Origin: a bacterium | GTDB lineage: Bacteria; Patescibacteriota; Minisyncoccia; Minisyncoccales; UBA10102 | Assembly: GCA_030647485.1 (NCBI GenBank) | Contig: JAUSJT010000004.1 | Span: 237,088 to 301,087 of the forward strand | Direction: 5' to 3' | DNA: 64,000 nucleotides | Shown here: positions 20,236 through 59,394 of the stretch, piece after piece | Numbering within the stretch: the first letter of the stretch is position 1 | Layout: the number at the start of each line of letters is the position of its first letter | Program-made: the position numbers and the translations under genes | Notes under the pieces: generated by a model | Database searches by the model: none | Told to the model about the DNA's origin: nothing | What the model saw: the letters and a program-made list of their open reading frames with translations, nothing else

Positions 20236-20252
20236 CTTAATGGAATTAAGTT
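20234..20252. repeat. 19-nt palindrome AACTTAATGGAATTAAGTT (copy 2 of 3)
   Basis: Identical to 9173-9191 and 59395-59413. It overlaps the mraY stop codon. With the flank TTCTA it is 23/23 identical to 59395-59417. Confidence 0.85.
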
Positions 20253-20255
20253 TCT

Positions 20256-21590
20256 ATGACAGTACAAACACTACGAAAAACATATCCTGCGTTTTTCTAT
20301 CGGGGATATAAGTATAAAAAAAGAGGAAAGGATCTCCTCATCTCTTTTTCTTTTGAGGTTCCTCCTGGCATCCAATTTCACCCCAAGGTTCTCATTAAAA
20401 ATCTCCCGCAAAAAGCATTAGAGGAGATAGGGAAGCAAGCGCTCAATAACCTTGTCTTTCATTTGGGACTCATGGAAATCCCAAGCTATTGGAAGGCAAC
20501 GTGTTCGCCCAACATTGTCATAGAAGCAGGATATTTGAATAAAAGGCAGATCAACTGGTGGCACGACCTAATCCTCAAAGGCATGGGGGAGTACTTCTAC
20601 AAAAACAAGATTGATTTTACCAAACCCAACTTCCTCAAAATTATCTCAATGGGAATCCCGCCTAAGCGAGACTTAGGCATACCTAAGTCTCGCTTAGGAA
20701 ACAGCTTGGGAAACAAGGTATTGGTGCCGGTAGGGGGAGGAAAAGATGCGGTGGTCACCCTAGAATTACTCAGGAAGGGGAAACAGCGTATCATTCCGTT
20801 TTTGCTGAATCCTAAAAGAGAGCAAGAAGAAATCCTCAAAATCGCAGGATTGAAGAACCCTGTGATTGTGACAAGGACCATAGATCCCAAGCTTTTAGAG
20901 TTAAACCGTAAAGGATATTTGAATGGACACACTCCCTTCTCTGCGTACCTTGCGTTCTTGTCTGTACTTAGCGCAGCTCTCTTTGGCACAAAGTACATTG
21001 CGCTCTCCAACGAAAGAAGCTCTAACGAAGGAAACGTACGGTATCTGGGAAAAACAATTAATCACCAGTATTCCAAGAGCTTTGATTTTGAAAAGAAGTT
21101 CCGTTCCTATGTAAAAACATATCTTGTAAAAAGTATAGAGTACTTCAGTTTTCTGCGGCCCCTCTACGAACTTCAAATTGCAAGGATATTCGCAAAGTAT
21201 CCAAAGTATTTCCCTGCATTCTTGAGCTGCAACGAAGCCCACAAAACAACATCGGGCACAAAGAAACCAACGGGAAAATGGTGCGGAAAATGCGCCAAAT
21301 GCCTGTTTGTATGGCTTGCGCTGTATCCGTTTATTTCAGCAAAACAATTAATCAGCATATTCAAGAAAAACTTGCTTCAAGACAAAGCTCTTGTCCCTCT
21401 TTTGGAAGAATTGACCGGAAAGAGAAAATTCAAACCCTTTGAATGCGTGGGCACAATAAGAGAAAGCAGAACCGCGCTTTCTCTGTGCCGCCAAAAACAA
21501 AAAGGGAAACTGCCTCGCGCTGCCATGTTATCTTCGTGGAATCGCAAACATTTTCTCCCCCTAAAGTTCGTTCAATTGTTGAAACATTGA
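20256..21590 (+). CDS. PP-loop-like ATP-utilising protein of unknown function inside the mur cluster (possible MurL-type epimerase; hypothesis)
   Basis: 444 aa. VLVPVGGGKDAVV resembles the SGGxDS PP-loop. A CGKCAKC motif lies near the C-terminus. It sits between mraY and murD. Confidence 0.45.
   Translation: MTVQTLRKTYPAFFYRGYKYKKRGKDLLISFSFEVPPGIQFHPKVLIKNLPQKALEEIGKQALNNLVFHLGLMEIPSYWKATCSPNIVIEAGYLNKRQINWWHDLILKGMGEYFYKNKIDFTKPNFLKIISMGIPPKRDLGIPKSRLGNSLGNKVLVPVGGGKDAVVTLELLRKGKQRIIPFLLNPKREQEEILKIAGLKNPVIVTRTIDPKLLELNRKGYLNGHTPFSAYLAFLSVLSAALFGTKYIALSNERSSNEGNVRYLGKTINHQYSKSFDFEKKFRSYVKTYLVKSIEYFSFLRPLYELQIARIFAKYPKYFPAFLSCNEAHKTTSGTKKPTGKWCGKCAKCLFVWLALYPFISAKQLISIFKKNLLQDKALVPLLEELTGKRKFKPFECVGTIRESRTALSLCRQKQKGKLPRAAMLSSWNRKHFLPLKFVQLLKH
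20661..20698. repeat. 38-nt perfect palindrome inside the CDS (CCTAAGCGAGACTTAGG-CATA-CCTAAGTCTCGCTTAGG)
   Basis: 17-bp arms. It encodes ...PKRDLGIPKSRLG.... The same CTAAG-N5-CTTAG hairpin occurs in intergenic DNA at 31775-31789 and 39686-39700. Confidence 0.85.
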
Positions 21591-21627: not shown

Positions 21628-21702
21628 AGGGGTGTAGTTTAATGGACAGAACGCTTCGCTTATAGCGAAGAGACGGAGGTTCGAATCCTTCCACGCCTAC
21701 CA
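21628..21702 (+). tRNA. tRNA-Ile (anticodon UAU), CCA encoded
   Basis: Hand-folded cloverleaf. Acceptor AGGGGTG/CACGCCT has one G-G mismatch. D stem is GTTT/GAAC with a GG loop. Anticodon stem is CTTCG/CGAAG with loop CTTATAG. T arm is GGAGG-TTCGAAT-CCTTC. Confidence 0.8.
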
Positions 21703-23088: not shown

Positions 23089-24169
23089 GCCAGATCCTAT
23101 TCTTTTTGGCATTTGCATCCTTCTTGTTGCCGTGGGAATTCTTGTTTTAGCCAGCGTGTCTGCTTCTTTTTCCTTGCAACGATTTGGCACCACATTCTAC
23201 TTCTTTATACATCAGATAACGCATGGGTTGCTCCCCGGACTTCTCTTGGGATCCATAGCATTCTTCACTCCATTGACACTCGTAAAACGGTTCAGCCTGC
23301 CTCTTCTTTTAGGTGCCATCGTCCTTGTGGGATTAGTGTTTATTCCGGGCATTGGAGTAAAATCAGGGGAAGCTTTGCGGTGGATATCCTTTTTTGGTTT
23401 TTCGTTCCAACCTTCCGAACTCTTAAAGCCCGCTTTCATAGTGTATCTTGCGGCATGGCTTGCAAACCGCGTTTCCCAGAAGAATAAGAATGCAATCCTT
23501 ATCCCTTTCTTTGCTATATTGGTAGCCATAAGCCTGTTTCTGGTTGCGCAGCCCGCAATAAGCACGCTGGGCATCATCGGAATCATTGGCCTTGCCATGT
23601 ATTTCTTTGCAGGCACGCCTGTGTGGCATACGGCTCTGCTGCTCTTGGGCGGACTTTTCATACTTATGAAGTTAGCCGCGTATAGCAAACTATCATATGT
23701 ATTAAACAGGGTAGCTGTGTTTCTTGACCCTTCATTAGACCCGCTTGGAAAAGGATATCAAATACAGCAAGCGCTCATTGGAATTGGGTCTGGGGGTATT
23801 ACGGGGGTAGGTTTAGGATTGAGCTTTCAGAAATTCGGATCTCTGCCTGAACCCATTGGGGACTCCATCTTTGCCATTTTTGCAGAAGAAATGGGCTTGA
23901 TAGGCGCAGTATTCCTTATTCTTCTCTTTCTCGCCTTTGCATGGAGAAGTTTTATCGTGGCTCAGCGGGTGCAGGATCCCTTTGCCAAGAACGCTGTTAT
24001 TGGAGTCGCCTGCTGGATTACGGTACAGGCATTCGTCAATATGGGAGCCATGATAGGCATTATTCCCTTAACAGGGGTACCCCTACCGTTTATATCCTAC
24101 GGAGGGTCAGCCCTCATAGCAGAGTTGATTGGAATTGGAATATTGCTTAACATATCTAAACAGGCATGA
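23072..24169 (+). CDS. ftsW: SEDS-family peptidoglycan glycosyltransferase FtsW/RodA
   Basis: 365-aa polytopic protein. ...GSLPEPIGDSIFAIFAEEMGLIG... and ...PLPFISYGGSA... are SEDS signatures. It lies in the mur cluster. Confidence 0.85.
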   Translation: MEKKHRPDPILFGICILLVAVGILVLASVSASFSLQRFGTTFYFFIHQITHGLLPGLLLGSIAFFTPLTLVKRFSLPLLLGAIVLVGLVFIPGIGVKSGEALRWISFFGFSFQPSELLKPAFIVYLAAWLANRVSQKNKNAILIPFFAILVAISLFLVAQPAISTLGIIGIIGLAMYFFAGTPVWHTALLLLGGLFILMKLAAYSKLSYVLNRVAVFLDPSLDPLGKGYQIQQALIGIGSGGITGVGLGLSFQKFGSLPEPIGDSIFAIFAEEMGLIGAVFLILLFLAFAWRSFIVAQRVQDPFAKNAVIGVACWITVQAFVNMGAMIGIIPLTGVPLPFISYGGSALIAELIGIGILLNISKQA

Positions 24170-25302
24170 AAATATTATTCACCGGAGGCGGAACAGGCGG
24201 GCACATCCTTCCCATCATCGCAGTAGCAAGAGAATTGAGAAAACAACAGGACAGCCCCGAACTTGCCGGAGGGCTGGAGTTTTTCTACATGGGCCCAAAG
24301 GATGACTTTGCGGAGATTTTGCTTTCACAAGAAGGAATCAAGGTATACCATGCGTTAGCTGGCAAGATAAGAAGATATGGGGGCTTCAAAACGCTTTTCC
24401 CAAACCTCCTAGATACGTTCGTCAAAACTCCCTTGGGAATTTTTCAGGCCTTGTTGCGCATGTTCCTTCTTTCTCCAGATCTTATCTTGAGCAAGGGGGG
24501 ATACGGAGCTTTGCCCGCAACCATTGCGGGGTGGATGCTCCAAATCCCCATTGTTCTCCATGAATCAGACACTGTTCCAGGATTATCCAATAGGGTGGGA
24601 GGATTCTTTGCCTCTCAAATCTTTGTATCATTCCCGCGCACCTCGTTCTTTCCCGCAAAGAAAATGGCAGTTGTGGGAAACCCCATACGAAAGGGGGTTC
24701 TGGTAGGATCCAAAGAAGAAGCGCAACGGCTCTTGGAACTAAAGGGCGGCAAGCCCGTCATCCTATTTATGGGGGGATCACAAGGTGCCCAGCGTATCAA
24801 CGACATGCTCTTGGCAATCTTGCAAGAAGCCTTAAAAGACTTTGAGATCATACACCAGGCAGGAGAAAAGAATTTTGTCCAGGTACGAGAAGAAGCCAAG
24901 ACCGTGGTAGACAAAGAACTCCTCCCGTATTATCACGCAGTTTCTTTCCTCAAGGAACAAGAGTTGCGGCACGTGTATGCTGCAACTGATTTTATCGTGA
25001 GCAGGGCAGGGTCTGGCTCCATATTTGAAATAGCAGCCCTGGGCAAACCATCCATTCTTATTCCTCTTCCTGAAGCTGCACAAAACCATCAAATTCAGAA
25101 TGCGTATGAGTATGCAAACACGGGAGCCGCCATAGTGCTTGAAGAGTCAAACCTGGCTCCGCATTTTTTCTTGGAGAAATTACGCTATCTGGTTTCAAAT
25201 TCTCAAGAATTGGCAAAAATGTCTGCGGCTGCCCTCCAATTTGCAAAGCCTGAAGCCGCAACAACCATTGCCAGATATCTCATTGAATCTAGCGTAAAGT
25301 AA
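24166..25302 (+). CDS. murG: Undecaprenyldiphospho-muramoylpentapeptide beta-N-acetylglucosaminyltransferase
   Basis: ILFTGGGTGGHILP and ...GGSQGA...; 378 aa; overlaps the ftsW stop. Confidence 0.9.
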   Translation: MKILFTGGGTGGHILPIIAVARELRKQQDSPELAGGLEFFYMGPKDDFAEILLSQEGIKVYHALAGKIRRYGGFKTLFPNLLDTFVKTPLGIFQALLRMFLLSPDLILSKGGYGALPATIAGWMLQIPIVLHESDTVPGLSNRVGGFFASQIFVSFPRTSFFPAKKMAVVGNPIRKGVLVGSKEEAQRLLELKGGKPVILFMGGSQGAQRINDMLLAILQEALKDFEIIHQAGEKNFVQVREEAKTVVDKELLPYYHAVSFLKEQELRHVYAATDFIVSRAGSGSIFEIAALGKPSILIPLPEAAQNHQIQNAYEYANTGAAIVLEESNLAPHFFLEKLRYLVSNSQELAKMSAAALQFAKPEAATTIARYLIESSVK

Positions 25303-25307
25303 CAACT

Positions 25308-26228
25308 ATGGACGTTCTACAAGCAAAAAATCTGACAAAAAAATTCGGCAATCTTGTTGCCGTAGATAATGTTTCCTTTTCGTTGCGAGAAGGAGAGATT
25401 TTAGGATTTTTGGGTCCCAATGGAGCTGGAAAAACAACTACTATTCAAATTCTTCTTGGAACGCTCTTGCCAACAAGTGGAGAAGTATTCTACTTTGGCA
25501 AAGATTTTAAACGCCATAGAGAAGAAATTCTTGAACAGGTAAACTTTTCTTCTACGTATACAAATCTTCCTTGGTATTTAACACTGCAAGAAAATCTCAA
25601 CTGTATTTCTTATTTGTACGATATTAAAAACCGGCGAGAACGAATCCAGAAAGTTGTTGAACTTTTCCACTTGGATGAGTTGCTGAAGAAAAAAACGTAT
25701 GAGTTTTCTTCGGGACAGCTCACAAGAATTAATCTCGCGAAAGCGTTTATTAACTTTCCCAAAGTTATTTTACTAGACGAACCGACAGCTTCTTTGGATC
25801 CAGATGTAGCAAAATATATCCGTGAATTCTTATTAAAAGAGCAAGAACAATTTCAGGTTTCTATTATTCTTACATCCCACAATATGGCAGAGATAGAAGC
25901 AGTATGCGACAGGGTCATCTTTATCAATGAGGGGAAAATTGTTGCAGATGATACCCCGGAAAACCTTGCAAAATCAATAGAAACCTGCCATATTCAGCTT
26001 TTTATAAAAGAGGGGCTAGAAAGAACAGTGGAATACTGCGTTAAATATGGATATGCAGCAAAGATAGAGGGGCATTACATTACTGTAGATCTTAAAGAAA
26101 AATCGATCGCTCCATTTCTTCAGGGCCTCGTAGAAGAGGGGATAACCTATGAAGAAATAAACATAGAAAAGCCCACATTAGAAGATTACTTCCTGCAGGT
26201 TATTGCAACTAAGTCTTCTGGACCATGA
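25308..26228 (+). CDS. ABC transporter ATP-binding protein (ABC-2 type)
   Basis: Walker A GPNGAGKTTT, signature FSSGQ, Walker B ILLDEPT. Confidence 0.9.
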   Translation: MDVLQAKNLTKKFGNLVAVDNVSFSLREGEILGFLGPNGAGKTTTIQILLGTLLPTSGEVFYFGKDFKRHREEILEQVNFSSTYTNLPWYLTLQENLNCISYLYDIKNRRERIQKVVELFHLDELLKKKTYEFSSGQLTRINLAKAFINFPKVILLDEPTASLDPDVAKYIREFLLKEQEQFQVSIILTSHNMAEIEAVCDRVIFINEGKIVADDTPENLAKSIETCHIQLFIKEGLERTVEYCVKYGYAAKIEGHYITVDLKEKSIAPFLQGLVEEGITYEEINIEKPTLEDYFLQVIATKSSGP

Positions 26229-27010
26229 AACTGCATCGAATATATGCAAATGTCTTGAGGTATTTCTATCTGTTCCGTCATAATCTAGATCGACTTACCG
26301 ATGCTTTTTATTGGCCTACGGTAGACCTTGTTCTGTGGGGAATAGCGAGTTTATATTTTCGATCATACCTAGATAATGCGCCCGCGATTGTCGCTTTCAT
26401 TCTTTCTGGGGTTATTCTTTGGATTATTGTATGGAGAGGTCAAGCTGAAATTTCTGTAAACGTGCTTGAAGAGATATGGAACAGGAACTTAATCAATATC
26501 TTTGTCGCTCCCCTGAAATTCTCTGAATGGATTTTATCTCTTTTAGCTATAGGGGCAATAAAAGCTTTTGCAAGTTTCCTTTTCGCTGTACTAGTAGCTT
26601 TCCTTTTGTACAAAGTGCAAATATTCTCCTTTGGATTTTACTTGGTTCCATTTATCATACCTTTGTTACTATTTGGGTATTCGGTTGGATTCTTCATTTC
26701 AGGGCTTGTACTTCGCTTCGGGACTAGGATACAAGGACTTTCATGGTCGTTAATTTTTGTTATCTCACCGTTTTCTGCGATCTATTATCCGCTAGAGATT
26801 CTTCCCGCATGGGCACAGAATATCGCTTCGTTTATCCCAGCAAGCTATATCTTCGAAGGAGCAAGAGAAGTTCTCATGAGCGGTGTCTTTGATCAAAACA
26901 AAGTTTTCATTAGCGTTGCCTTAAGCGTCGTATACTTTGTCGCTGCGTTGCTCTTTTTCAGACAAAGTTTCTACAAAGCTTTAAAGAATGGCCTCACCAA
27001 GGTGTACTAA
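26225..27010 (+). CDS. ABC-2 family transporter permease
   Basis: 261 aa with about 6 TM segments, translationally coupled to the ATPase. Confidence 0.8.
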   Translation: MKLHRIYANVLRYFYLFRHNLDRLTDAFYWPTVDLVLWGIASLYFRSYLDNAPAIVAFILSGVILWIIVWRGQAEISVNVLEEIWNRNLINIFVAPLKFSEWILSLLAIGAIKAFASFLFAVLVAFLLYKVQIFSFGFYLVPFIIPLLLFGYSVGFFISGLVLRFGTRIQGLSWSLIFVISPFSAIYYPLEILPAWAQNIASFIPASYIFEGAREVLMSGVFDQNKVFISVALSVVYFVAALLFFRQSFYKALKNGLTKVY

Positions 27011-27012
27011 GT

Positions 27013-27053
27013 CCATCGCCAGGTATCTCATTGAATCTAGCGTAAAGTGGTGA
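27013..27053 (+). pseudogene. Orphan copy 2 of the murG 3' end (…SIARYLIESSVKW*)
   Basis: Starts 2 nt after the permease stop. The 22-nt core CTCATTGAATCTAGCGTAAAGT is identical to 25279-25300. Confidence 0.85.
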
Positions 27054-27065
27054 TAAACTAGAGAT

Positions 27066-27260
27066 ATGAAGAATAAAAAGATATCGATTCAAGAAAGACA
27101 AGACAAGATATTTAGAAACATGTCTGCCGATAGGAAGTTAACCATAGCGGCGCGTTTATCGATGTTCTGTTTGGAATTAAACACCTTAAATCACTATGCA
27201 TCACATAATCGACCCCAGAGCAGTAGTGGTCAAGATCGCCAGCATCTTGCACGAGGTTAA
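27066..27260 (+). CDS. Small ORF (64 aa) overlapping the next gene by 65 nt; real length uncertain
   Basis: ORF track only. Its ATG occupies the same position in the repeat as the gltX ATG does in copy 3. Confidence 0.25.
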   Translation: MKNKKISIQERQDKIFRNMSADRKLTIAARLSMFCLELNTLNHYASHNRPQSSSGQDRQHLARG

Positions 27261-27768
27261 AATCCCTTATTTCATAACTGGCGGTTTTGCCGTTTCTGTC
27301 TGGGGTCGGCCGCGTGCAACCTTTGATATCGACGTTGTTGTAGAACTCATAGAACCAAAGGTGGAGGCGTTGGCAGGAGCGCTCCGGAAAATCTACAAGG
27401 CAGGCTATATAGATGAGACTTCAGCAAAAGATGCAATTCGCCATCAAAGCGAATTTAATTTTCTTGACCCGTTTACCGGGTTAAAAATAGATTTCTGGGT
27501 TACAAAGCGAGACGAGTTGTCTTTACTGAAGTTACAGAGAAAAATACCTAAAAAAATCAGCGGCAAGACGGTCTACTTTATTTCTCCCGAAGATTTAATT
27601 TTAAGCAAGCTTGTCTGGTATACAATGGGCGAGTCAACGAGACAGTTAGAGGATATAGAATCTGTCATCAAAATTTCTGGCAAGAAGCTTGATATGGGGT
27701 ATATTCGAAAATGGGCAAAGAGATTGGGAACTTTAGATATTCTTTCAAAACTTCTCGCAAAAATATAG
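27196..27768 (+). CDS. Nucleotidyltransferase-fold protein (MNT/AbiEii-like core)
   Basis: ITGGFAVSVWGRPRATFDIDVVV resembles the G[GS]-x9-13-DxD minimal NTase signature. 190 aa. Confidence 0.5.
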   Translation: MHHIIDPRAVVVKIASILHEVKIPYFITGGFAVSVWGRPRATFDIDVVVELIEPKVEALAGALRKIYKAGYIDETSAKDAIRHQSEFNFLDPFTGLKIDFWVTKRDELSLLKLQRKIPKKISGKTVYFISPEDLILSKLVWYTMGESTRQLEDIESVIKISGKKLDMGYIRKWAKRLGTLDILSKLLAKI

Positions 27769-27778
27769 AGTACAGGGC

Positions 27779-27802
27779 CTCATTGAATCTAGCGTAAAGT
27801 GA
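27779..27802 (+). pseudogene. Orphan copy 3 of the murG 3' end (…LIESSVK*)
   Basis: The 22-nt core is identical to copies 1 and 2. The following spacer up to the gltX ATG resembles the spacer after copy 2. Confidence 0.85.
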
Positions 27803-27817
27803 TGATAGGGTAGAGGT

Positions 27818-29260
27818 ATGAATGTGAGAACGAGATTTGCGCCATCTCCGACAGGACCCTTGCATATGGGGAATGCAAGAACTGCGTTGTTTAACTATCT
27901 CTTTGCCAAAAAGGAAGGAGGAGTTTTTGTTCTGCGCATTGAAGACACAGACAAAGAACGCTCTTCGCCCGAATGGGAGAAAGACCTTCTAGAAAATCTC
28001 CACTGGTTGGGCTTGGAATGGGATGAAGGGGAAGGAAAAGAAGGTCCATACAACCCATATCGCCAATCAGAAAGAACGGAGATATATAAAGAATACTTGC
28101 AGCAACTTCTAGAACAGGGAAAAGCATACTATTGTTTTTGCAGCGCAGAAGATCTGGAAGCCCAACGCCAAGACCAGCTAAGCAGGGGAGTGGCGCCAAA
28201 ATACAAAGGAACGTGCAGGGAATTATCAAAAGAAGAACAAGAAAAACAACTGCAATCCGGGAAATCCGCTATTATCCGCCTTCTCGTTCCAGAAAAAACA
28301 ATTACATTCAAAGATCTCATTCGGGGAGAAATACGTTTTGATATGGGCCTGGTAGGGGATATGGTGCTTGCAAAAGATCTAGAAACTCCGCTGTATAACT
28401 TTACCGTGGTTATAGACGACTACTTGATGAAAATAACGCATGTCATTAGAGGAGAAGACCACATTTCTAACACCCCAAAGCAAATGGTTCTAGAGGAAGC
28501 TCTCGGATTCCCCCATACTATACAATATGCCCATCTTCCCCTTATCTTAGGAGAAGACCGCACCAAATTAAGCAAACGGCATGGAGACAATTCGGTAACC
28601 AGATTCCGTAAAGAAGGGTATCTCCCAGAAGCTGTGGTAAACTTTCTTGCGCTCTTGGGGTGGAATCCGGGAGACGAACGGGAGATATTCTCCCTGGAAA
28701 ATCTTGTGAAAGAATTTTCCATGGAAAAGGTGCAGAAATCAGGCGCAGTGTTCAATATGCAGCGCTTAGATTGGATTAACGGGTCCTACATCAGGCAAAA
28801 GAGTCCAAAGAACCTCGCAGAGCTTGCGGCTCCCTATCTTCCCGGAGTTTCTATAGATGCGATTGAGAAAGTCATAGTACTGTATAAAGAACGGTTGAGA
28901 AAACTTTCTGAAATAGGGGAATTGGCAGATTTCTTTTTCAAAGAGAAGCTTGAATATCCAAAAGAACTCTTGAAATGGAAACAGTATTCAGATAAAGACA
29001 TAGAGAAGGCCCTTCAGACTGTAGAACAGATATTGTCGCTCATCCCAGAGGCAGACTGGACAAAAGAAGTCCTGGGAGAAATACTCTTGAAAGAAGCAGA
29101 AAAGATAGGGGACAGGGGATACCTTCTCTGGCCCATGAGAGTGGCGCTTACGGGAAAACAGGCGTCGCCAGGACCCTTTGAAGTAGCGGAGGTTTTAGGA
29201 AAAGAAAAAGCGTTGGCACGGATTAAAAGCGCAATATCAATGGTAAGGTCGAATACATAA
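27818..29260 (+). CDS. gltX: Glutamyl-tRNA synthetase
   Basis: RFAPSPTGPLHMGNARTALFN (HIGH) and KLSKRH (KMSKS); 480 aa. Confidence 0.9.
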   Translation: MNVRTRFAPSPTGPLHMGNARTALFNYLFAKKEGGVFVLRIEDTDKERSSPEWEKDLLENLHWLGLEWDEGEGKEGPYNPYRQSERTEIYKEYLQQLLEQGKAYYCFCSAEDLEAQRQDQLSRGVAPKYKGTCRELSKEEQEKQLQSGKSAIIRLLVPEKTITFKDLIRGEIRFDMGLVGDMVLAKDLETPLYNFTVVIDDYLMKITHVIRGEDHISNTPKQMVLEEALGFPHTIQYAHLPLILGEDRTKLSKRHGDNSVTRFRKEGYLPEAVVNFLALLGWNPGDEREIFSLENLVKEFSMEKVQKSGAVFNMQRLDWINGSYIRQKSPKNLAELAAPYLPGVSIDAIEKVIVLYKERLRKLSEIGELADFFFKEKLEYPKELLKWKQYSDKDIEKALQTVEQILSLIPEADWTKEVLGEILLKEAEKIGDRGYLLWPMRVALTGKQASPGPFEVAEVLGKEKALARIKSAISMVRSNT

Positions 29261-29277
29261 TACATATAATAATAACT

Positions 29278-29526
29278 ATGAGCACAAAACAACTTATTAT
29301 CTTAGTTCTTATTCTCTTCTTTCTCCCTCCGCTCTTGGGCAAGGTTTCACTCACGCCCTTTTCTGATTTCTTCTCGCATATGTCATTGCAGGGTTTTGTA
29401 AACGCGTTTGGTACGGTTTTTCAAGACGACTTTAATTTCTACAAAGGCCTTGTAGATCCGTGGATCACAAAGCTTGTTGATTTCATAAAGAGCAACATGC
29501 CAAAGTTGCCAGCAAGTACTCCTTAG
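29278..29526 (+). CDS. Small secreted/membrane protein (82 aa)
   Basis: N-terminal hydrophobic helix LIILVLILFFLPPLLG. No other motif. Confidence 0.45.
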   Translation: MSTKQLIILVLILFFLPPLLGKVSLTPFSDFFSHMSLQGFVNAFGTVFQDDFNFYKGLVDPWITKLVDFIKSNMPKLPASTP

Positions 29527-29529
29527 GCA

Positions 29530-30120
29530 ATGAGAAATACGAAGAGGTGCTCTTGGTCATTAAGCAGTCAGGAAATGATAGAGTACCATGACACGGAGTG
29601 GGGGAGACCCCTTTTTGAAGACAAGAAAATACTCCAAGCTTTTTTCTTGGATACATTCCAAGCAGGTTTGAGTTGGGCAATTATTCTTTCAAAAAGAAAT
29701 AATTTCAAAAAAGCTTTTGCAAACTTCAACGCTGCAAAAATTGCAACGTACGGCAGGGGAGAGGTGCGGCGTCTTATGGGGAACTCCGGGATTATACGAA
29801 ACAAAAGAAAGATAGAAGCAGCAATACTCAACGCACAAAAAATCCTTACAATTAAAAAGGAGTGCGGATCTTTCGCAAAATATCTCTGGCAATTCACACA
29901 TGGAAAAACCATACATCACGCCTTTCGTAGGCTAGGGGATGTTTCGACAACCTCAAAAGAGGCCAAAACTATGAGTAAGGATATGAGAGCTAGGGGATTC
30001 AAGTTTGTGGGGCCCACAACCCTTTATGCCCTTATGCAGGGCATTGGAATGGTGAATGACCACCTGGTATCCTGCTTTGCGTACCAAGAGGTCAAAAAGG
30101 CCTCTTCTAGACGTTTTTAG
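29530..30120 (+). CDS. tag: DNA-3-methyladenine glycosylase I
   Basis: CSW...YHDTEWGRP...FLDTFQAGLSWAIILSKRNNFKKAFANF matches the Tag family. Confidence 0.85.
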   Translation: MRNTKRCSWSLSSQEMIEYHDTEWGRPLFEDKKILQAFFLDTFQAGLSWAIILSKRNNFKKAFANFNAAKIATYGRGEVRRLMGNSGIIRNKRKIEAAILNAQKILTIKKECGSFAKYLWQFTHGKTIHHAFRRLGDVSTTSKEAKTMSKDMRARGFKFVGPTTLYALMQGIGMVNDHLVSCFAYQEVKKASSRRF

Positions 30121-30135
30121 GGTCTTATACGGGTA

Positions 30136-30166
30136 TTGACACACCCCTAGGGTAGGGGTGTATTAT
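30136..30166 (+). promoter_or_regulatory. Candidate promoter (TTGACA-19-TATTAT) whose spacer is the palindrome CACCCCT-aggGt-AGGGGTG
   Basis: TTGACA at 30136-30141 and TATTAT at 30161-30166. Inverted repeat at 30142-30148 / 30154-30160. The spacer is longer than optimal. Confidence 0.35.
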
Positions 30167-30239
30167 AAAGCTATACCAGTTCGCATAATTATACTTAAGC
30201 GAATAGCTTATACCAGTTTTACACAAAACCACTTCTCCC

Positions 30240-31181
30240 ATGCAAAAATCACAAAAACCCCTCCCCCAGCATGTTTCTGATTTTTTGGACTGGTTAGAAA
30301 TTGAAAAAGGATTATCGTCAAAATCTCAAGAAAATTATTCCAGATTCATAAATAAATTTATTTCCTGGCTCAAAGATTCTAACCTCTCTTCTCTGACTCC
30401 CGACACTCTTACTCCCGACCATATCCGCCAATACCGTCTTTTTCTGGCTCGTAACCCTACCAAGCCCCTTAAGAAATCAACCCAGAACTATTACCTTATA
30501 GCTCTTAGAAGCCTCCTCAACTACTTTGCCGACAGAGATATAATCTCTTTACCATCAGAAAAGATAAAACTTGCTAGAGACAAGGAAGACCGCCAAGTTC
30601 GTTTCTTAACTCTAGAACAACTTCAGAGACTCTTTGATGCGCCAAACACTAAAATATTCCAGGGATTGCGCGATAGGACCATACTCGAAACCTTCTTTTC
30701 CACGGGAATGAGAATTTCAGAACTCGTAGCTCTTAATACAGAACAAATCAATATAAAACCCGATGCGGAAGAACTGGAGCTAACCATTACGGGAAAAGGC
30801 GGAAGGATACGCACCGTGTACTTCTCAGCCAGAACGCTCGAATGGCTCTACAGATACCTAAAAGAACGAAAAGACGTTGAGAATGCCCTTTTTGTGACCT
30901 ACAAAGGCAAGAAGAAGGAGCCGCACCGCATCACGCCCCGGGCTATTCAAAAAGCATTCAAAAAATACACGATCATTGCTGGAATTCCCCTATTCACCAC
31001 GCCTCATGTAATGCGCCATACATTCGCTACTGACCTCCTTTCGCAAGGTGTTGATCTGCGCACCATTCAGGAATTTCTGGGCCACAAAAGCATTACCGCT
31101 ACCCAAATCTATGCCCATGTCACAAGCCAAAAACTCCGCGAAATACATGAAAAGTTTCATAGTGGAAAGAATCTAAAATGA
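30240..31181 (+). CDS. Tyrosine recombinase, XerC/XerD-like
   Basis: SAM-like N-domain. Catalytic residues: R (GMRISELVAL), HVMRHTFAT (HxxR) and LGHKSITATQIYAHV (H...Y). Confidence 0.85.
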   Translation: MQKSQKPLPQHVSDFLDWLEIEKGLSSKSQENYSRFINKFISWLKDSNLSSLTPDTLTPDHIRQYRLFLARNPTKPLKKSTQNYYLIALRSLLNYFADRDIISLPSEKIKLARDKEDRQVRFLTLEQLQRLFDAPNTKIFQGLRDRTILETFFSTGMRISELVALNTEQINIKPDAEELELTITGKGGRIRTVYFSARTLEWLYRYLKERKDVENALFVTYKGKKKEPHRITPRAIQKAFKKYTIIAGIPLFTTPHVMRHTFATDLLSQGVDLRTIQEFLGHKSITATQIYAHVTSQKLREIHEKFHSGKNLK

Positions 31182-31720
31182 TTACTACTCCCCTATCTCC
31201 AGAATTTGTTGCGGGCCTGACTGCGGGCGAAGGATGCTTTGACTTGCAGTTTCATCGCGATGTTCGCAGAGAACGAAAAGGCAGCCCCGTTTACTATAGT
31301 TGGAAAGTTCAATTTGTTATAAATCTTAAGAATAAAGACCTAGAGCTTATTAAAAAGCTTCCTGAAGTGTTTGGATGTGGTACGGTCCACACTCCAATTG
31401 GCTATGCGCGATTTTCCGTACAGGATATAGATAATTTGTACCACATCGTTTTGCCATTTTTCCGAAAATATCCGCCGTACGGAAACAAACAAAAAGATTT
31501 TGAGCTATGGGCAGAAACTATAGAGATTCTTTATGCTAATAAATTTGTACGAAAACCTGCTCGAGGGAAACAAGGTTTTGCAAAAAAGGCATGGAAACGA
31601 ACATCCTTTCAAAGAATCCTTGAACTTCATAAGTTGATGCAACCCTACAAATCTATACGTCCTCAAGGATATAAATGGATTAAAGAAGCAGAAAGATTTG
31701 CCGAAACCCTAGAAGATTAA
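31178..31720 (+). CDS. LAGLIDADG-family homing endonuclease (single-motif type)
   Basis: FVAGLTAGEGCF is a LAGLIDADG motif near the N-terminus. 180 aa. ATGA overlap with the recombinase stop. Confidence 0.75.
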   Translation: MITTPLSPEFVAGLTAGEGCFDLQFHRDVRRERKGSPVYYSWKVQFVINLKNKDLELIKKLPEVFGCGTVHTPIGYARFSVQDIDNLYHIVLPFFRKYPPYGNKQKDFELWAETIEILYANKFVRKPARGKQGFAKKAWKRTSFQRILELHKLMQPYKSIRPQGYKWIKEAERFAETLED

Positions 31721-31724
31721 ACGC

Positions 31725-31772
31725 CTCCGCGACATTCATCGTCAATTCCACAGCGGCAAAAACCTCAAGTAA
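31725..31772 (+). pseudogene. Orphan copy 2 of the recombinase 3' end (…LRDIHRQFHSGKNLK*)
   Basis: Peptide is nearly identical to the real C-terminus …LREIHEKFHSGKNLK*. The nucleotides differ mainly at third-codon positions. Confidence 0.8.
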
Positions 31773-31798
31773 AACTAAGTCTCGCTTAGTTATCCACA
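31770..31798. repeat. 29-nt element TAAAACTAAG-TCTCG-CTTAGTTATCCACA (hairpin plus a perfect DnaA-box-like 9-mer)
   Basis: Arms are the reverse complement of 39677-39705, but the 5-nt loop is identical on the + strand. Confidence 0.8.
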
Positions 31799-31815
31799 AG
31801 AGTCTTCTCTGGGGC

Positions 31816-32100
31816 CTATAGACGAATCTTCTCTAACTCTTGCTGAACTATATCGGGAGAAGCCGTATAAATACGGATTGCCTGAACAGATGTGTTCCCG
31901 CGAACAGTCATTAACAACCCACTTGTACTCCTTTTGAACTTTACCCTCTTCGTTCCCCTCTGACCTGGGGTTGATTTGATAAAACCGAGAGATATCTTTG
32001 CAACCTCTGGCAGCTTTTCTGCTGCCCTTACCAAAGGTTCTGCCGCTTCAATGAGGGTTGTATGTGTTCCCCCTGACTTTTTTCCTTGCCACTTTGCCAT
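31816..32100 (-). CDS. Hypothetical protein (94 aa, basic)
   Basis: ORF 27 nt downstream of the methyltransferase on the same strand. No recognisable motif. Confidence 0.45.
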   Translation of the reverse strand: MAKWQGKKSGGTHTTLIEAAEPLVRAAEKLPEVAKISLGFIKSTPGQRGTKRVKFKRSTSGLLMTVRGNTSVQAIRIYTASPDIVQQELEKIRL

Positions 32101-32126
32101 ATTTTAACCTGAAATGTCGCACAATG

Positions 32127-32726
32127 TTAACCCTTTCGCACGAGAAAATGAAGATAGTTTTTTGATCCTGGTTTGAATGTTTCAAAATGAAAAGGCGTAA
32201 AACCGACTTCTTTGAGTAAAGATTCCACTTCTTCTTTCGTATAATATGCGAAGTATCGCGGAAGATTTACCCCTGAACTCTCACGATATCCCTCTGTATC
32301 GCCCTCGATAAGCCCCAAGCCAAAGATTCCGTCTTTCTTTAGCACCCTATGAATTTCCTTAAGCCCTGTCTGTACTTCTGATTTTGGAACATGAAGAAGT
32401 GTTGTGTAAGACCAAACTCCGTCAAAAGAGCCGTCGGGGAATGGAATACTATTGAAATCTCCCAACACAGACAAAAAGCCCTTCTCCTTGGTCATCGAAA
32501 TCATCGCCTCCGAAGCATCAAAGCAAGTTACATCCAGCCCTGCCCGCTGAAGAATGAGTGCATCCCTGCCCGGTCCACTTCCCACGTCTAATACCCTTCC
32601 TTTGGTAGGAATATTTTCGCAAAACTTGCGAATGAAAATATTGGGAAAAATATTCCAGAAATCTTTGGTTTCTTCATCATATTCTTTTGCAAGTTTATTG
32701 TAAGTATCTATAGTCTTCTTGTCCAT
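32127..32726 (-). CDS. Class I SAM-dependent methyltransferase
   Basis: VLDVGSGPGRDAL is motif I. 199 aa. Confidence 0.75.
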   Translation of the reverse strand: MDKKTIDTYNKLAKEYDEETKDFWNIFPNIFIRKFCENIPTKGRVLDVGSGPGRDALILQRAGLDVTCFDASEAMISMTKEKGFLSVLGDFNSIPFPDGSFDGVWSYTTLLHVPKSEVQTGLKEIHRVLKKDGIFGLGLIEGDTEGYRESSGVNLPRYFAYYTKEEVESLLKEVGFTPFHFETFKPGSKNYLHFLVRKG

Positions 32727-32760
32727 ATTGATACTTTATCAAAAAACCGCCTCCTTGGCG

Positions 32761-32781
32761 ATTTTAACTATCCCCTATTCC
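32761..32781 (-). terminator. Short-stem intrinsic terminator (TCGCC-aagga-GGCGG-TTTTTT on the - strand)
   Basis: 5-bp GC stem plus a T6 run. Homologous in design to 36634-36654 and 39618-39640. Confidence 0.45.
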
Positions 32782-32797
32782 GCGACATCCACCGCCA

Positions 32798-32845
32798 GTT
32801 TCATAGTGGAAAGAATTTAAAATAGATACCTCCTACCTTGGCTCT
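32798..32845 (+). pseudogene. Orphan copy 3 of the recombinase 3' end (…FRDIHRQFHSGKNLK*)
   Basis: Shares the 19-nt block GTTTCATAGTGGAAAGAAT with the real gene end. No upstream ORF is attached. Confidence 0.8.
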
Positions 32846-32910
32846 AATTTGGATAATGACGATGGGGTCTAGAGAAATGCGGTCGATTATTCAGTTTAGG
32901 GGTATTGAAT

Positions 32911-33729
32911 TTATAATAATATACTTATTTGTTTAACTAAACCTATTCGATAAGCATTGAAAGCTTTATAGTAAGTTTCTAAATACTCTAAGACTTCGTC
33001 GGGTGTAATTCCGTTTTCAAAATCAATATAATCAAGATCGCGGTAGTTTGCTTTTATTCGATACCAATAGAAAAAATCAATTAACATTAATTGCTCCGTT
33101 GTAATGAACTGCTTCTGTTCAGTCTGATGTTTCTTTGTACGCAAATTCCATTTTTTGCCAATTTTGGCATCATGTAATTTGTACTCCATTAGCTTTTTTG
33201 CTAAAGACTGAACGCATTCATTTTTCTGCCAATAATCACTCCGAGTATTCTGTCCAGCATGTATTGTGGGCATATTTCTTACCTGTGTCAGATTGTGTAC
33301 AACATTGAGATCACTTTGACTGAAAGAGATAATACCACTACTAACTAACCCATAAATCTTCTTTCGTATACCCGAATGCCCTCCTTTTCCGAATCCATAG
33401 GTACATCCATCAATAACATTCACTAGCACGCTTTCGAGATAATAAAGGGCGTAATAGCACTTCACAGGAAACCACGGAGCAACGATTACTGCAAACTCTG
33501 GGTCTTCTTTTGCTAATTCAATATCTTTCTTAATACTCTTTACTGTAACCTTACATAATTTTTGAAATCTCACTATTTCAACATTTTTCCTTACGGGAGT
33601 ACCGATTTTACTTGCCAAAAAATTATTAACCGACAACAACTTTTCTATACACCTGATGTAATTAAGGTGTGTACGAAAAGATGCTTTTGCAGAATCAAGC
33701 GGAGATGAGGGTCGAGTGAATATGGTCAT
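32911..33729 (-). CDS. Hypothetical protein co-operonic with the RM genes; possible HEPN-like nuclease
   Basis: 272 aa, 21 nt downstream of the S subunit. Contains VRNMPTIHAG (R-N-x4-H), which fits the HEPN Rx4-6H motif. Otherwise unrecognised. Confidence 0.4.
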   Translation of the reverse strand: MTIFTRPSSPLDSAKASFRTHLNYIRCIEKLLSVNNFLASKIGTPVRKNVEIVRFQKLCKVTVKSIKKDIELAKEDPEFAVIVAPWFPVKCYYALYYLESVLVNVIDGCTYGFGKGGHSGIRKKIYGLVSSGIISFSQSDLNVVHNLTQVRNMPTIHAGQNTRSDYWQKNECVQSLAKKLMEYKLHDAKIGKKWNLRTKKHQTEQKQFITTEQLMLIDFFYWYRIKANYRDLDYIDFENGITPDEVLEYLETYYKAFNAYRIGLVKQISILL

Positions 33730-33749
33730 TTGATCTCATCTCTAAATAG

Positions 33750-36499: not shown

Positions 36500-36633
36500 A
36501 TCAATATTATATCAATAATGACCCCCAAGGGACAGGGGTAATTTTAGAGACTTCTCAATTATCCTTAGTTTAATTAGATTCAAAGTAGTATGTTTAACAG
36601 TAACGAAAGAATTCGAACTTCTTCAAGTCTATC

Positions 36634-36654
36634 AAAAAATCGCCTTCTCGGCAA
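36634..36654 (-). terminator. Short-stem intrinsic terminator (TTGCC-gagaa-GGCGA-TTTTTT on the - strand)
   Basis: Lies downstream of the doc operon. Flank CTATCAAAAAATCGCC resembles TTATCAAAAAACCGCC at 32757. Confidence 0.4.
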
Positions 36655-36745
36655 TACCTGGGTTGAAATGTCGCACAATACATTCGCTTTCGCTCAGTAT
36701 AAAGGTCGCTTTACATATATTCTCCGTCCTTAGTCTTATCTTCCC

Positions 36746-36773
36746 TTGACATACAACGGCGGGTTGCTATAAT
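36746..36773 (+). promoter_or_regulatory. Orphan consensus promoter TTGACA-16-TATAAT
   Basis: TTGACA at 36746-36751 and TATAAT at 36768-36773. No ORF follows. Confidence 0.5.
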
Positions 36774-36779
36774 GTAGCT

Positions 36780-36836
36780 ATTACCACGAAAAAGACCCTT
36801 ACAGGGTTCCGTCCCTGTCGGGGGCTTTTTCTTTTT
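36780..36836 (+). ncRNA. Candidate about 55-nt small RNA (promoter-to-terminator unit), function unknown
   Basis: Two hairpins (ACCCT-tac-AGGGT; GTCCC-tgtc-GGGGC), then TTTTTCTTTTT. It is convergent with the doc operon and antisense to its 3' flank. Confidence 0.35.
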
Positions 36837-36915
36837 CAGATGACTCTAATTTCTGCATAAATTCATTCTACCTACTAAATTTTTGAACCTCCATTCATAT
36901 ATTCTCCATCATTCC

Positions 36916-37299: not shown

Positions 37300-37301
37300 T
37301 G

Positions 37302-39640: not shown

Positions 39641-39676
39641 TCTTGCTTTAACCGTTCTGCCTTAACCGAGTTAAGG

Positions 39677-59387: not shown

Positions 59388-59394
59388 CTTCTTA

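Follow-up and report, generated by a model that had tools for sequence, protein, structure and literature searches.

Neisseria reportedly carries minimal mobile elements (MMEs), which are accessory cassettes located between conserved genes and exchanged via DNA uptake and homologous recombination. Tandem accretion also occurs at att sites in gene 3' ends, and 'additive' islands lie next to tRNA genes. ICESt1/ICESt3 and the integrase-less CIMEs are said to accrete in this way at fda in Streptococcus thermophilus. In E. coli, the microcin H47 island is flanked by short direct repeats, has no recombinase of its own and is excised by the host in a RecA-independent manner (PMC3191183, PMC5426353). 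In fungal mtDNA, LAGLIDADG ORFs and a partial copy of the C terminus come after atp6 and cob, a gene duplication associated with homing endonucleases (PMC6279837).

Here, we describe, in an ultrasmall CPR bacterium, the murG/gltX boundary of a Patescibacteria genus, which parts two essential genes and for which the chances are roughly even that it is a cassette slot working without a recombinase. Like the microcin H47 island, the DNA at this boundary is flanked by short repeats and lacks a recombinase of its own. Unlike the murG/gltX stack, microcin H47 is a single island whose repeats duplicate neither a gene terminus nor a promoter. The features are given below, with positions counted in the window, that is, the whole 64,000-nt stretch of DNA that was analysed:

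24166–25302, + strand: murG (378 aa), which closes the murD-ftsW-murG block; both Glyco_transf_28 domains (N and C, Pfam), synteny with relatives.
25265–25302, + strand: junction-module copy 1, where murG functionally ends (..IARYLIESSVK*, stop at 25300–25302); core at 25279–25300.
25308–27010, + strand: cassette 1, ABC ATPase (25308–26228) and ABC-2 permease (26225–27010); Pfam ABC_tran and ABC2_membrane.
27012–27070, + strand: junction-module copy 2, a displaced murG terminus, gltX-type leader and ATGAA.
27066–27768, + strand: cassette 2, a 64-aa ORF (27066–27260) overlapping a DUF6036/AbiEii-like nucleotidyltransferase (NTase) gene (27196–27768).
27769–27778, + strand: G-rich filler of variable sequence, after the NTase stop and before copy 3, from alignment with relative L034.
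27779–27822, + strand: junction-module copy 3, the core with the native leader and start of gltX, as in cassette-free relatives.
27818–29260, + strand: gltX (glutamyl-tRNA synthetase), ancestral downstream neighbour of murG; Pfam tRNA-synt_1c and Anticodon_2, synteny.

These gene identities agree with those of the initial annotation. The ABC genes of cassette 1 are DrrA-like (NCBIfam) and have only three close homologues (84–87%), and every one examined sits at the murG/gltX site. Cassette 2 is a toxin-antitoxin-like (TA) pair, and the small-ORF/NTase combination is also present in hundreds of Patescibacteria. Its NTase scores 23.0 bits with Pfam DUF6036, slightly below the cut-off, and weakly matches the AbiEii/AbiGii toxin 8an4 in the PDB (E 0.024). 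Cassette units span 0.7–1.7 kb, and their genes are of Patescibacteria type. The earlier argument from low GC rested on wrong numbers, as hand counts had given 57% for murG and 30–35% for the cassettes. The computed values are 47.4% for murG, 38.3% and 40.5% for cassettes 1 and 2, and 44.2% for gltX (window mean, 43.5%). As the cassette values are close to those of native genes such as murD (39.8%), composition is a weak signal of foreign origin.

The initial annotation was accurate in reporting three exact copies of the 22-mer CTCATTGAATCTAGCGTAAAGT, which lie on the + strand at 25279, 27027 and 27779 (0 expected from 100 shuffles). There is no further match in the window, even when up to 3 mismatches are allowed, and the 13-mer CTCATTGAATCTA recovers the identical three sites. 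The 22-mer is also absent elsewhere in the metagenome and viral collections searched, and is thus not a generic dispersed repeat. Copy 1 lacks a gltX-type leader, and the ABC ATPase gene begins after a gap of just 5 nt. Copy 2 begins at 27012, 1 nt past the permease stop (27008–27010), and not at 27013 as first given, but it is a murG-terminus repeat as claimed: 27012–27053 encodes SIARYLIESSVKW* in the murG frame and is out of frame with the permease. Its gltX-type leader spans 27049–27065, and the ATGAA that follows now starts the small ORF. In L034, this same form, ..SVKW* GGTGATAA, makes up the functional end of murG. Copy 3 lies 10 nt past the NTase stop, as had been estimated, and the intervening filler has indels even relative to the L034 cassette, which is itself 98% identical. 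Copies 2 and 3 have G[GA]TGATAnnnTAGAG[AG]TATGAA in common, through to an ATG, again as previously noted.

The repeated unit is therefore more than the murG end: it is the whole murG-3'/gltX-5' junction, comprising the murG end, the gltX leader and the start codon. Besides the start codon, it contains two boxes, CTCATTGAAT and the promoter-like TGATAnnnT; the repeats are 22–59 nt long. A fixed 22-nt core as the repeat unit, as proposed initially, does not hold in general. In other lineages, the constant part between copies is CTCATTGAAT(CTA) only, and the block of identity between adjacent copies shifts, being the core in the window and the leader (not the core) in L032.

Comparison with relatives shows how the cassettes came to lie here. 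In 12 distant Patescibacteria, murG is directly followed by gltX, and approximately six close relatives (L019/L021, L023, L025, L027/L028 and L033) are cassette-free with one module copy each. Because murG abuts gltX with a single copy in both groups, both window modules are insertions into an ancestrally direct junction, which bears out the earlier proposal of serial insertion into the murG terminus and its prediction of cassette-free, single-copy alleles. Relatives carry none to four modules: ABC only in L031; TA and a 243-aa gene in L034; TA, a Bestrophin-like gene and a minus-strand gene in L032; and ABC, a decayed TA, a Bestrophin-like gene and a minus-strand gene in L030, with ABC and TA in the window. 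The site is thus a real insertion hot spot without a recombinase of its own, used repeatedly in lineages of the genus. Domain searches found no nuclease or recombinase domain in any cassette (ABC, TA, Bestrophin-like), and the earlier statement that neither window cassette encodes a recombinase extends to all array variants examined. The NTase cassette was exchanged recently, because between the window and L034 it is 97–98% identical (NTase gene, 98.1%; TA cassette, 97.3%) versus 83–85% for the flanking genes (murG, 84.4%; gltX, 82.7%); o82+tag, also on the flanks, is 89.7% identical.

The CTCATTGAAT box is constrained at the DNA level. All module copies that precede an ORF retain CTCATTGAAT-N13-14-TGATAR, and the spacer between the two boxes diverges freely in non-coding copies. 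The same geometry is present in the distant relative L001 (TTGAGT-17-TACGAT-6-ATG). Across nine functional murG ends, the seven core codons have a pairwise divergence of 0.08 versus 0.18 upstream; this is the lowest-divergence seven-codon window of all, and CTC ATT GAA TCT is almost without synonymous change. A consensus promoter scan did not call the module, its best being 8/12 matches with a tool threshold of 9/12. In five lineages, the 10–13 nt of CTCATTGAAT(CTA) are invariant in every copy, non-coding copies included. This exceeds the need of a -35 hexamer, and could mark a protein-binding or recombination site.

Our preferred reading, on which we are evenly divided, is that cassettes entered by rare illegitimate insertion, that the survivors duplicated the murG-end/gltX-signal module and that they were then shuffled or lost by inter-module recombination. 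In the ancestral state, murG leads directly into gltX, and its last codons (CTC ATT GAA T..) and a 15-nt spacer would double as putative gltX signals: a -35-like TTGAAT and, 17 nt on, a TGn and TAnnnT -10-like box, then AGAGG as ribosome-binding site and, last, the start codon. A plain insertion would truncate murG or sever gltX from these signals, and therefore insertions that persist would leave a complete module of ~40–60 nt on each side. At the origin step, a 37–55-nt duplication would have been created around the foreign DNA. The window would hold two such insertions, stacked. In the first, read-through from murG would reach the ABC-2 exporter pair, and the former murG terminus now lies after that pair; in the second, the small-ORF/AbiEii-like NTase pair is joined to a duplicate of the gltX leader with its start codon. 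Compared with the family form in L035, the small ORF is shortened at its N terminus and continues in frame from the gltX ATG, which points to an illegitimate joint.

Once duplicated, the modules could act as portable homology arms. Recombination between them, or in the flanking genes of related lineages, would add, swap or delete cassettes and make a cassette-encoded enzyme unnecessary. Differences between lineages in the displaced murG termini are almost all synonymous, and these termini match the murG end of their own genome, as is expected if module crossover places the recipient's terminus behind the incoming cassette. The agent would be host homologous or illegitimate recombination, the module would function as a promoter, and selection would be the reason that the murG terminus appears 'regenerated'. 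The initial annotation had ascribed regeneration to the insertion mechanism; selection accounts for it just as well, since signals that gltX requires overlap with the end of murG. As a counterpoint, homology arms of 30–50 nt are short for RecA-type exchange, and a tandem module without cargo, which would be an intermediate, was not found among ~8 cassette-free lineages.

It is unlikely, in our estimation, that the site is instead a dedicated platform, integron- or IMEX-like without IntI, at which a host recombinase recombines cassette circles at the CTCATTGAAT-containing core and the site supplies expression signals. The most obvious candidate enzyme would then be the Xer-family tyrosine recombinase encoded 2.4 kb downstream, where the features are:

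30240–31181, + strand: Xer-like tyrosine recombinase gene, allele type A, which shares 57% identity with the type-B allele found in close relatives.
31178–31720, + strand: free-standing gene for a LAGLIDADG homing endonuclease, which overlaps the stop of xer (Pfam LAGLIDADG_1).
31721–31791, + strand: displaced type-B xer terminus, copy 2 of repeat family D1, with a terminator-like hairpin.
32110–32139, + strand: M motif copy 1, AAATGTCGCACAATGTTAA (repeat family D11).
32779–32825, + strand: third xer-terminus copy, chimeric (left half B-like, right half A-like), inside a low-GC island.
36664–36693, + strand: M motif copy 2.

The M motif, a candidate dif motif next to xer, is conserved, non-coding and located downstream of xer across Patescibacteria. 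Its two copies bracket a 4.5-kb island of 35.6% GC with methyltransferase and type I R-M genes. As this separate motif divides single-gene cassettes, recombinase-driven accretion probably does occur in these genomes, which favors a platform. So do the conserved gltX-tag-xer block flanked by two repeat-bounded arrays, the core that is exact in 3/3 window copies with frozen synonymous sites, the invariant 10–13 nt, and cassettes that are co-oriented, tightly packed and different in content by strain. However, the murG/gltX module copies do not resemble the M motif (negative score with a matrix from 14 M sites) and form no hairpin, being without dyad symmetry (DNA folding z-scores, -0.96 to +1.0). 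The shifting identity block misfits a fixed crossover point, the copy flanks derive from the junction and not from element-specific arms, array state does not track xer allele type, and the 22-mer is confined to this site in the collections searched. Further, the recombinase scores 104.7 bits against an integron-integrase cut-off of 265 and is syntenic in cassette-free genomes.

Rather more doubtful is a single ancient array, assembled once in the ancestor of the genus and subject since then only to deletion between module copies, with nothing mobile today. Cassette order is identical in all array variants where cassettes co-occur, direct repeats favor precise deletion, and divergence in the ABC pair is similar to that in core genes (82–84% vs 77–85% identity), all as such an array would predict. 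Against this, the TA cassette is 97% identical between lineages with core genes at ~84%. The non-homologous Bestrophin-like genes of L030 and L032 share one slot with only 42% identity, so that simple inheritance and loss does not explain slot content, and the 243-aa gene is unique to L034. In addition, the murG identity matrix does not group the cassette-bearing lineages together, and at least five independent clean losses would be required.

The xer locus bears on a further possibility. Genes neighboring xer are 84–95% identical to those of the close relatives with the divergent type-B allele, and the displaced terminus shares 90% identity with the functional end of xer in L019. L025 has the LAGLIDADG gene, whereas L019, L027 and L023 lack it. 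The xer-gene repeat is a separate case, tied to a homing endonuclease of the LAGLIDADG type and to an exchange of the complete xer allele. The initial annotation was right that the recombinase 3' end recurs twice (family D1), and a scan of the 64-kb window for other recurring gene ends found only murG and this gene; its suggestion of one shared, uncharacterised mechanism was not supported, as the recombinase-gene repeat is in part characterised, with the LAGLIDADG gene located between xer and its displaced old terminus, and the murG cassettes have no nuclease. By analogy with xer, a surrogate murG 3' end with cargo might have been driven in by a homing-type nuclease, lost or acting in trans, that cleaves near the murG end, with the resident terminus displaced each time; we regard both this invasion and such a cleavage site as very improbable. 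The architecture is similar (1–5-nt gaps, displaced termini differing at synonymous sites), comparable C-terminal duplications are known in fungal mitochondria (PMC6279837), and the right-hand ABC breakpoint, TAA-N-TCCAT, is identical in three lineages, but common descent accounts for that breakpoint. The ABC, TA and Bestrophin-like cassettes have no nuclease domain, the TA cassette duplicates the gltX leader and carries no surrogate murG end, and murG, unlike xer, is not allele-replaced (84–85% vs 57%). A contig chimera joined at a short shared repeat is scarcely credible: the source is a metagenome-assembled genome and Logan contigs break at the repeat (L022 terminates inside copy 2), but a single sequencing read is longer than the repeats, independent assemblies of other runs (L030, L031, L032 and L034) have these junctions too, at 81–97% identity and not as copies, and the cassette genes are Patescibacteria-type.

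Recombinase-less shuffling of modules, as preferred here, relates to the known systems as follows. The xer locus is like the fungal duplications, with a gene, a LAGLIDADG ORF and a displaced old terminus, presence/absence polymorphism and an identical breakpoint; unlike them, it is bacterial and chromosomal with a whole recombinase allele swapped, and the murG cassettes have no endonuclease. Like integron arrays, the murG/gltX locus has small, co-oriented, packed cassettes of one or two genes, including a TA-like one, with strain-variable content and a tyrosine recombinase gene nearby. Unlike integrons, it has no IntI and no attC hairpins, and its boundary copies the host junction, is conserved in sequence and not in structure, and provides a putative promoter-like module per unit. 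The Xer-dependent, integrase-less IMEX and Acinetobacter pdif modules are similarly bounded by short repeats close to xer, and this model fits the M-motif array better than the murG/gltX module, which has neither the dif-like 11-6-11 architecture nor an M-motif match. As in ICE/CIME accretion, direct repeats of a gene 3' end part stacked elements, some of which lack an integrase. However, those arrays have an integrase from one member and a fixed core, whereas the murG/gltX variants are all integrase-less, with small units and a shifting identity block. Like MMEs, the locus is a fixed slot between two conserved genes with strain-specific cargo and no element-encoded recombinase, and inter-lineage exchange shows in cassettes that are far more alike than their flanks. 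MMEs differ in being replaced as single units without junction duplication; each murG/gltX insertion keeps a copy of the junction module, which would double as an expression signal, and so the cassettes stack in tandem.

The 3′ end of murG recurs twice between murG and gltX, where the window carries two cassettes: cassette 1, an ABC ATPase and an ABC-2 permease, and cassette 2, a 64-aa ORF and a nucleotidyltransferase-fold (NTase) gene. A 22-nt core, CTCATTGAATCTAGCGTAAAGT, is found at exactly three sites in the 64-kb window, which confirms the three copies reported by the initial annotation:

25279, + strand: copy 1, the end of murG (24166–25302)
27027, + strand: copy 2, beginning 1 nt past the ABC-2 permease stop; translated in frame with murG it gives SIARYLIESSVKW and then a stop
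27779, + strand: copy 3, 10 nt past the stop of the NTase gene, continuing into the gltX start

No fourth site is present in the window at up to 3 mismatches, with none expected by chance, and the 13-mer CTCATTGAATCTA finds the same three sites. Copies 2 and 3 agree over the next 22 nt up to the ATG, also as first described. In a systematic scan of the window, murG and the recombinase gene (xer, 30240–31181, + strand) are alone in having their last 45 nt repeated downstream, and gltX is the sole gene with a 5′ region recurring upstream; the murG-end and recombinase-end families are the two largest direct-repeat families there. A dispersed repeat or terminator was rejected because the core has only three sites in the window, marks three murG ends with one copy each in the metagenome collection and forms no hairpin. 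The viral contigs searched gave zero matches to the 22-mer, and Rfam over 24000–37500 gave no known RNA element in the junction at E ≤ 1. A 26-nt match between mraY (19507) and the end of the ABC ATPase gene (26184) is a coincidence involving a conserved MraY motif. The hand-counted GC contents of the initial annotation (about 30–35% in the cassettes, 57% in murG and 47% in gltX) were wrong: the computed values are 47.4% for murG, 38.3% and 40.5% for cassettes 1 and 2, 44.2% for gltX and 43.5% for the window, and these rule out a strongly foreign composition of the cassettes.

MurG relatives are all Patescibacteria/CPR, and the closest species representatives, labelled Wildermuthbacteria and Nealsonbacteria, are 63% identical. 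The gene order murD-ftsW-murG-gltX is found in 12 distant genomes, where the murG–gltX spacer is 10–200 nt. In the window, a tRNA-Ile with anticodon TAT (UAU) lies just 5′ of murD (21628–21702). Scanning the metagenome collection with the 22-mer gave three contigs (L-numbers denote loci of relatives), each with a single copy at the murG end and then gltX, which lies 15 nt away in L019 and L021; in L020 some 100 nt of unrelated sequence intervenes. The same cassette-free layout is seen in L023, L025, L033 and L027/L028 (the last of the same lineage as L020), which are contexts of MurG homologues at 84–91% identity. The ancestral junction reads ..ATTGCCAGRTAY CTCATTGAATCTAGCGTAAAGT GATGATAnnGTAGrGrYATGAAYGTGAGAAC.. 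These single-copy junctions indicate that both window segments are insertions, as had been proposed together with the prediction of cassette-free alleles. Exact-sequence look-ups for same-species variants returned one short contig with the window MurG and nothing with an 82-aa ORF.

Four further array variants were reached via close homologues of the permease (84–87%) and of the NTase. In what follows, the module is the repeated murG-3′/gltX-5′ boundary and the TA pair is the toxin-antitoxin-like pair of cassette 2.

Content of the murG–gltX slot
Window: ABC pair, module, TA pair, module
L031: ABC pair, module
L034: module, TA-like pair, module, 243-aa gene with its own TTGACA-17-TATTAT promoter
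L032: module, TA pair, module, Bestrophin-like gene, module, terminator, minus-strand gene
L030: ABC pair, module, decayed TA pair, short module, Bestrophin-like gene, short module, terminator, minus-strand gene

The slot therefore combines conserved flanking genes with strain-variable cargo, as an array of small co-oriented cassettes that number from 0 to 4 per lineage. Where a unit lacking the module stands directly 5′ of gltX (L030 3765–3800, L032 12048–12080, L034 2363–2385), the first 2–4 gltX codons are replaced, giving starts that read MSSKVRT.., MSNTVRT.. and MAVRT..; insertion breakpoints thus extend into the gltX start. L027 (9365–9470) has ~100 nt of extra gltX leader instead of codon replacement.

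Cassette 1 encodes a DrrA-like ABC ATPase and an ABC-2 permease. The family is common across Patescibacteria at 55–62% identity; close relatives number only three, and those examined sit in the murG–gltX slot. Cassette 2 comprises the 64-aa ORF overlapping a DUF6036 NTase gene, and looks like a toxin-antitoxin module because the NTase weakly matches AbiEii/AbiGii toxins. The overlap (27196–27260) is 65 nt in different frames, an arrangement kept in L035 that may reflect translational coupling or programmed frameshifting; among the homologues P0262, P0285 and P0302 some are 224–231 aa and may be fused forms. The pair is found in hundreds of Patescibacteria. It also lies, 74–77% identical, between metG and tatD in L035 (5820–7200), L036, L037, L038 and L039, a junction whose content differs among contigs (extra 74–95-aa ORFs, HicAB nearby). 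The metG–tatD form of the small ORF has 11 additional N-terminal codons; the ORF in the window's genus is therefore a truncated version whose in-frame fusion to a gltX-type ATG suggests an illegitimate joint. Nuclease, transposase and recombinase domains were found in none of the cassettes of the window, L030, L031, L032 and L034.

Alignment of all copies shows that the entire junction is repeated: as much as 15 nt of murG ahead of the core, the core itself, then the leader GATGATAGGGTAGAGGT and ATGA, at times with a few bases more. The duplications span 37–55 nt and their extent is variable. Just two elements are invariant among the copies that stand before an ORF, CTCATTGAAT(CTA) and, 13–14 nt downstream, a TGATAR box; between them, non-coding copies drift freely (L030 copies 3 and 4, L032 copies 2 and 3). 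The resulting geometry (TTGAAT, 17 nt ending in TGA, TAnnnT, 6 nt, ATG) matches an extended −10 promoter, a putative function suggested by the conservation of this geometry, and the distant L001 has the same geometry with a different sequence. A sigma-70 consensus promoter scan did not report the module. When the last 47 codons are compared among nine functional murG ends, no 7-codon window diverges less than the seven codons of the core (0.08 vs 0.18), and synonymous change in CTC ATT GAA TCT is virtually zero, which indicates that the core is constrained as DNA. In addition, AGAGG lies 6 nt 5′ of an alternative GTG start of gltX, and the module therefore also contains a ribosome-binding site.

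A second terminus duplication lies at xer, which is syntenic in cassette-free genomes. The genus has three xer allele types that are only 51–64% identical, and the adjoining genes are 84–95% identical across the window, L019, L023, L025 and L027 lineages:

Type A: window and L025, mutually 94.6% identical
Type B: L019 and L027, 57% identical to A
Type C: L023

Directly after type A xer comes a LAGLIDADG endonuclease gene (LAGLIDADG_1, E 3.7e-17), its start overlapping the xer stop, followed by the last 51 nt of a type-B xer and its terminator, 90% identical to the functional end in L019. L023 has a type-B remnant that begins at the same base, without the endonuclease gene. Types A and C thus both leave a type-B 3′ remnant from one base (ACGCC/TCCGCGAC; window 30170–31791, L025 12557–14140, L023 12635–13700). 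The succession of gene, homing endonuclease and displaced C-terminal copy is known in fungal mitochondria (PMC6279837); at xer the whole host gene is also replaced. The LAGLIDADG cleavage point would be expected on type-B xer 3′ ends near ..AACAA/ACGCCTCCGCGA.. or CGCCAA/TTCCAC. The initial annotation had seen the same architecture at murG and at the recombinase gene and had suggested one shared, uncharacterised mechanism; the likeness in form stands, but a driver, the endonuclease, is identifiable at xer and absent at murG. A small GC-rich palindromic insert lies between ..CACCGCCAA and TTCCACAGCGG.. in the xer 3′ end (L032 15401–15470, L023 13650–13676); in L032 14 nt are also duplicated and a stop codon has been gained. 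A third xer-terminus copy in the window (32779–32825) is chimeric exactly at this point (32797/32798), a possible hot spot of recombination or cleavage.

Further 3′ of xer lies a conserved non-coding motif, AAATGTCGCACAAT[R]TTAATCC (the M motif), always in the same orientation:

Window: 32110–32139, 36664–36693
L023: 14234, 15534, 16507
L032: 15574, 16266
L002: 14397
L003: 8916
L019: 5654
L025: 14141
L027: 14985

It is present in distant Patescibacteria too, 40–45 nt past xer in L002 and L003, and repeated copies separate single minus-strand genes. The motif is a candidate dif/Xer target, suggestive of IMEX- or pdif-like cassette accretion; a clear 11-6-11 dyad was not seen in it, and viral contigs scanned for it gave one unrelated GC-rich match. 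Two AAATGTCGCACAAT copies bracket a 4.5-kb island in the window (32140–36663, 35.6% GC) with a SAM methyltransferase (32127–32726, weak PADLOC mad2 match), type I R-M hsdS and hsdM, the chimeric xer-terminus copy and a 272-aa ORF without a family match. GC skew is steadily negative from ~30 kb on and mixed earlier, and gene orientation converges at ~31.8 kb, in a 64-kb window that is too small to place the replication terminus. Two palindromic families, ..CTAAGTCTCGCTTAG.. (20672–20697, 31764–31789, 39675–39700) and ..AACTTAATGGAATTAAGTT.. (9169–9192, 20230–20253, 59391–59414), are probably genus-typical terminators; the one read in context, 31764–31789, sits just past the displaced xer terminus.

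How the cassettes arrive is a matter on which our judgement is evenly balanced for one account: they would enter by illegitimate insertion, selection would retain only products with the murG end and the gltX signal module intact, and recombination between modules and in the flanks would follow. The first step would be rare and duplicative, and could proceed by a small tandem junction duplication with insertion at the joint, by fill-in of a wide staggered break or by template switching. Selection would be the reason that only duplicative products are seen, and the module copies would then double as movable homology arms and as sources of expression signals. Where a junction has no overlapping signals, lineage-specific genes are inserted with no duplication: gene-end duplication was not found at ftsW–murG (L023, L033), murL–murD (L027, L032) or metG–tatD (L035–L039, where the small-ORF/NTase pair also lacks a flanking duplication), and junction duplication is therefore not universal. 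Lineage-specific small ORFs in the cell-wall cluster are found at L023 8643–8918, L033 8311–8871, L027 5611–5802 and L032 6288–6614.

Allele comparisons bear on the recombination step. The window and L034 share 98.1% identity in the NTase gene and 97.3% across the TA cassette, against 84.4% for murG, 82.7% for gltX and 89.7% for o82 plus tag, a difference that argues for homologous exchange. Window copy 2 is chimeric, with an upstream part unlike L034 joined to the ..SVKW-stop GGTGATAA form that is the functional murG end of L034, as would be expected of a crossover inside the module. Between lineages, six of the eight changes in displaced murG termini are synonymous, and each such terminus follows the murG end of the genome it sits in (window AGA/AGG, L030 CGC/CGC, L031 CGA/CGC; Tyr and Val codons too). 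A double crossover, its right arm spanning the donor's displaced terminus and the recipient's real murG end, would give this pattern exactly.

A dedicated site-specific system, with the copies as att-like sites, is unlikely. Direct repeats of the murG 3′ end do flank each unit, but the block of identity shifts: neighbouring copies in the window have an identical core and a leader differing at 6 of 22 positions, whereas those in L032 have 23 nt of identical leader and a core differing at 10 of 23. The two full cores of L030 differ at 2 positions, and identity across copies falls from 22 nt in the window to only CTCATTGAAT(CTA) across lineages, which would count against a fixed crossover core. 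The three copies show no excess of folding over shuffled controls on either strand (z between −0.96 and +1.0; minimum free energies between −0.3 and −5.0 kcal/mol). With a matrix from 14 candidate-dif M motifs the copies score below 0 and rank 50, 1600 and 2449; a dif-like site akin to the M motif was thereby rejected. That the slot is an ancient array shaped by loss only is quite unlikely. Array order is constant (ABC, then TA, then Bestrophin-like); the Bestrophin-like genes of L030 and L032 share only 42% nucleotide identity, and lineages with cassettes do not cluster in the murG identity matrix.

A bolder and improbable proposal is that the junction module is a true recombination site and that, with the M motif, it places the gltX-tag-xer block at the centre of a Patescibacteria chromosomal cassette-capture platform. 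A housekeeping Xer-family recombinase would insert integrase-less cassettes at both sites, the site giving promoter and start codon; if true, this would be a functional analogue of integrons, independently evolved in ultrasmall bacteria. Homing-type invasion has very little probability: terminus duplication next to a homing endonuclease is seen at xer, whereas the murG cassettes hold only ABC and NTase genes. An artefact is scarcely credible, the array variants coming from independent sequencing runs.

CPR/Patescibacteria genomes are tiny, dense and largely without classical mobile elements, and to our knowledge their route of accessory gene gain is poorly understood. Here, natural before-and-after alleles present accessory modules (an exporter, a toxin-antitoxin-like pair, membrane proteins) stacked between two essential genes that share signals, through duplication of a ~50-nt boundary whose copies would then act in recombination and expression. 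If this is general, recurring gene termini and leaders would mark flexible slots in streamlined genomes, and such stacking would offer a recombinase-free path to integron-like arrays. The same recombinase gene adds two features, a conserved candidate Xer target that in distant Patescibacteria separates single-gene cassettes, and a LAGLIDADG-linked recombinase gene replacement.

The literature searched gave no earlier description of such an architecture in Patescibacteria. Like an integron, the slot has a variable array of small co-oriented cassettes, but the nearest recombinase is best described as XerC/XerD/XerA (104.7 bits against the integron integrase TIGR02249, cut-off 265) and attC-like folding of the copies was rejected. 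As in ICE/CIME tandem accretion, each unit is flanked by direct repeats copied from the 3′ end of the target gene, but no member in the window, L030, L031, L032 or L034 encodes an integrase. The copies appear to lack the dif-like boundary of IMEX and Xer-dif elements (two arms, 6–8-nt centre), having neither dyad nor structure. Transposons and IS elements differ, since there is no transposase domain and the duplications vary in length; inspection of the cassette ends by eye turned up no inverted repeats. MME-like flank-homology exchange is matched in the conserved flanking genes, variable cargo, lack of an element recombinase and 97–98% cassette against 83–85% flank identity, although the murG–gltX slot, unlike those systems, duplicates the junction. 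The locus falls outside integrons, IMEX elements and transposons, and is a variant of flank-homology islets and gene-end accretion.
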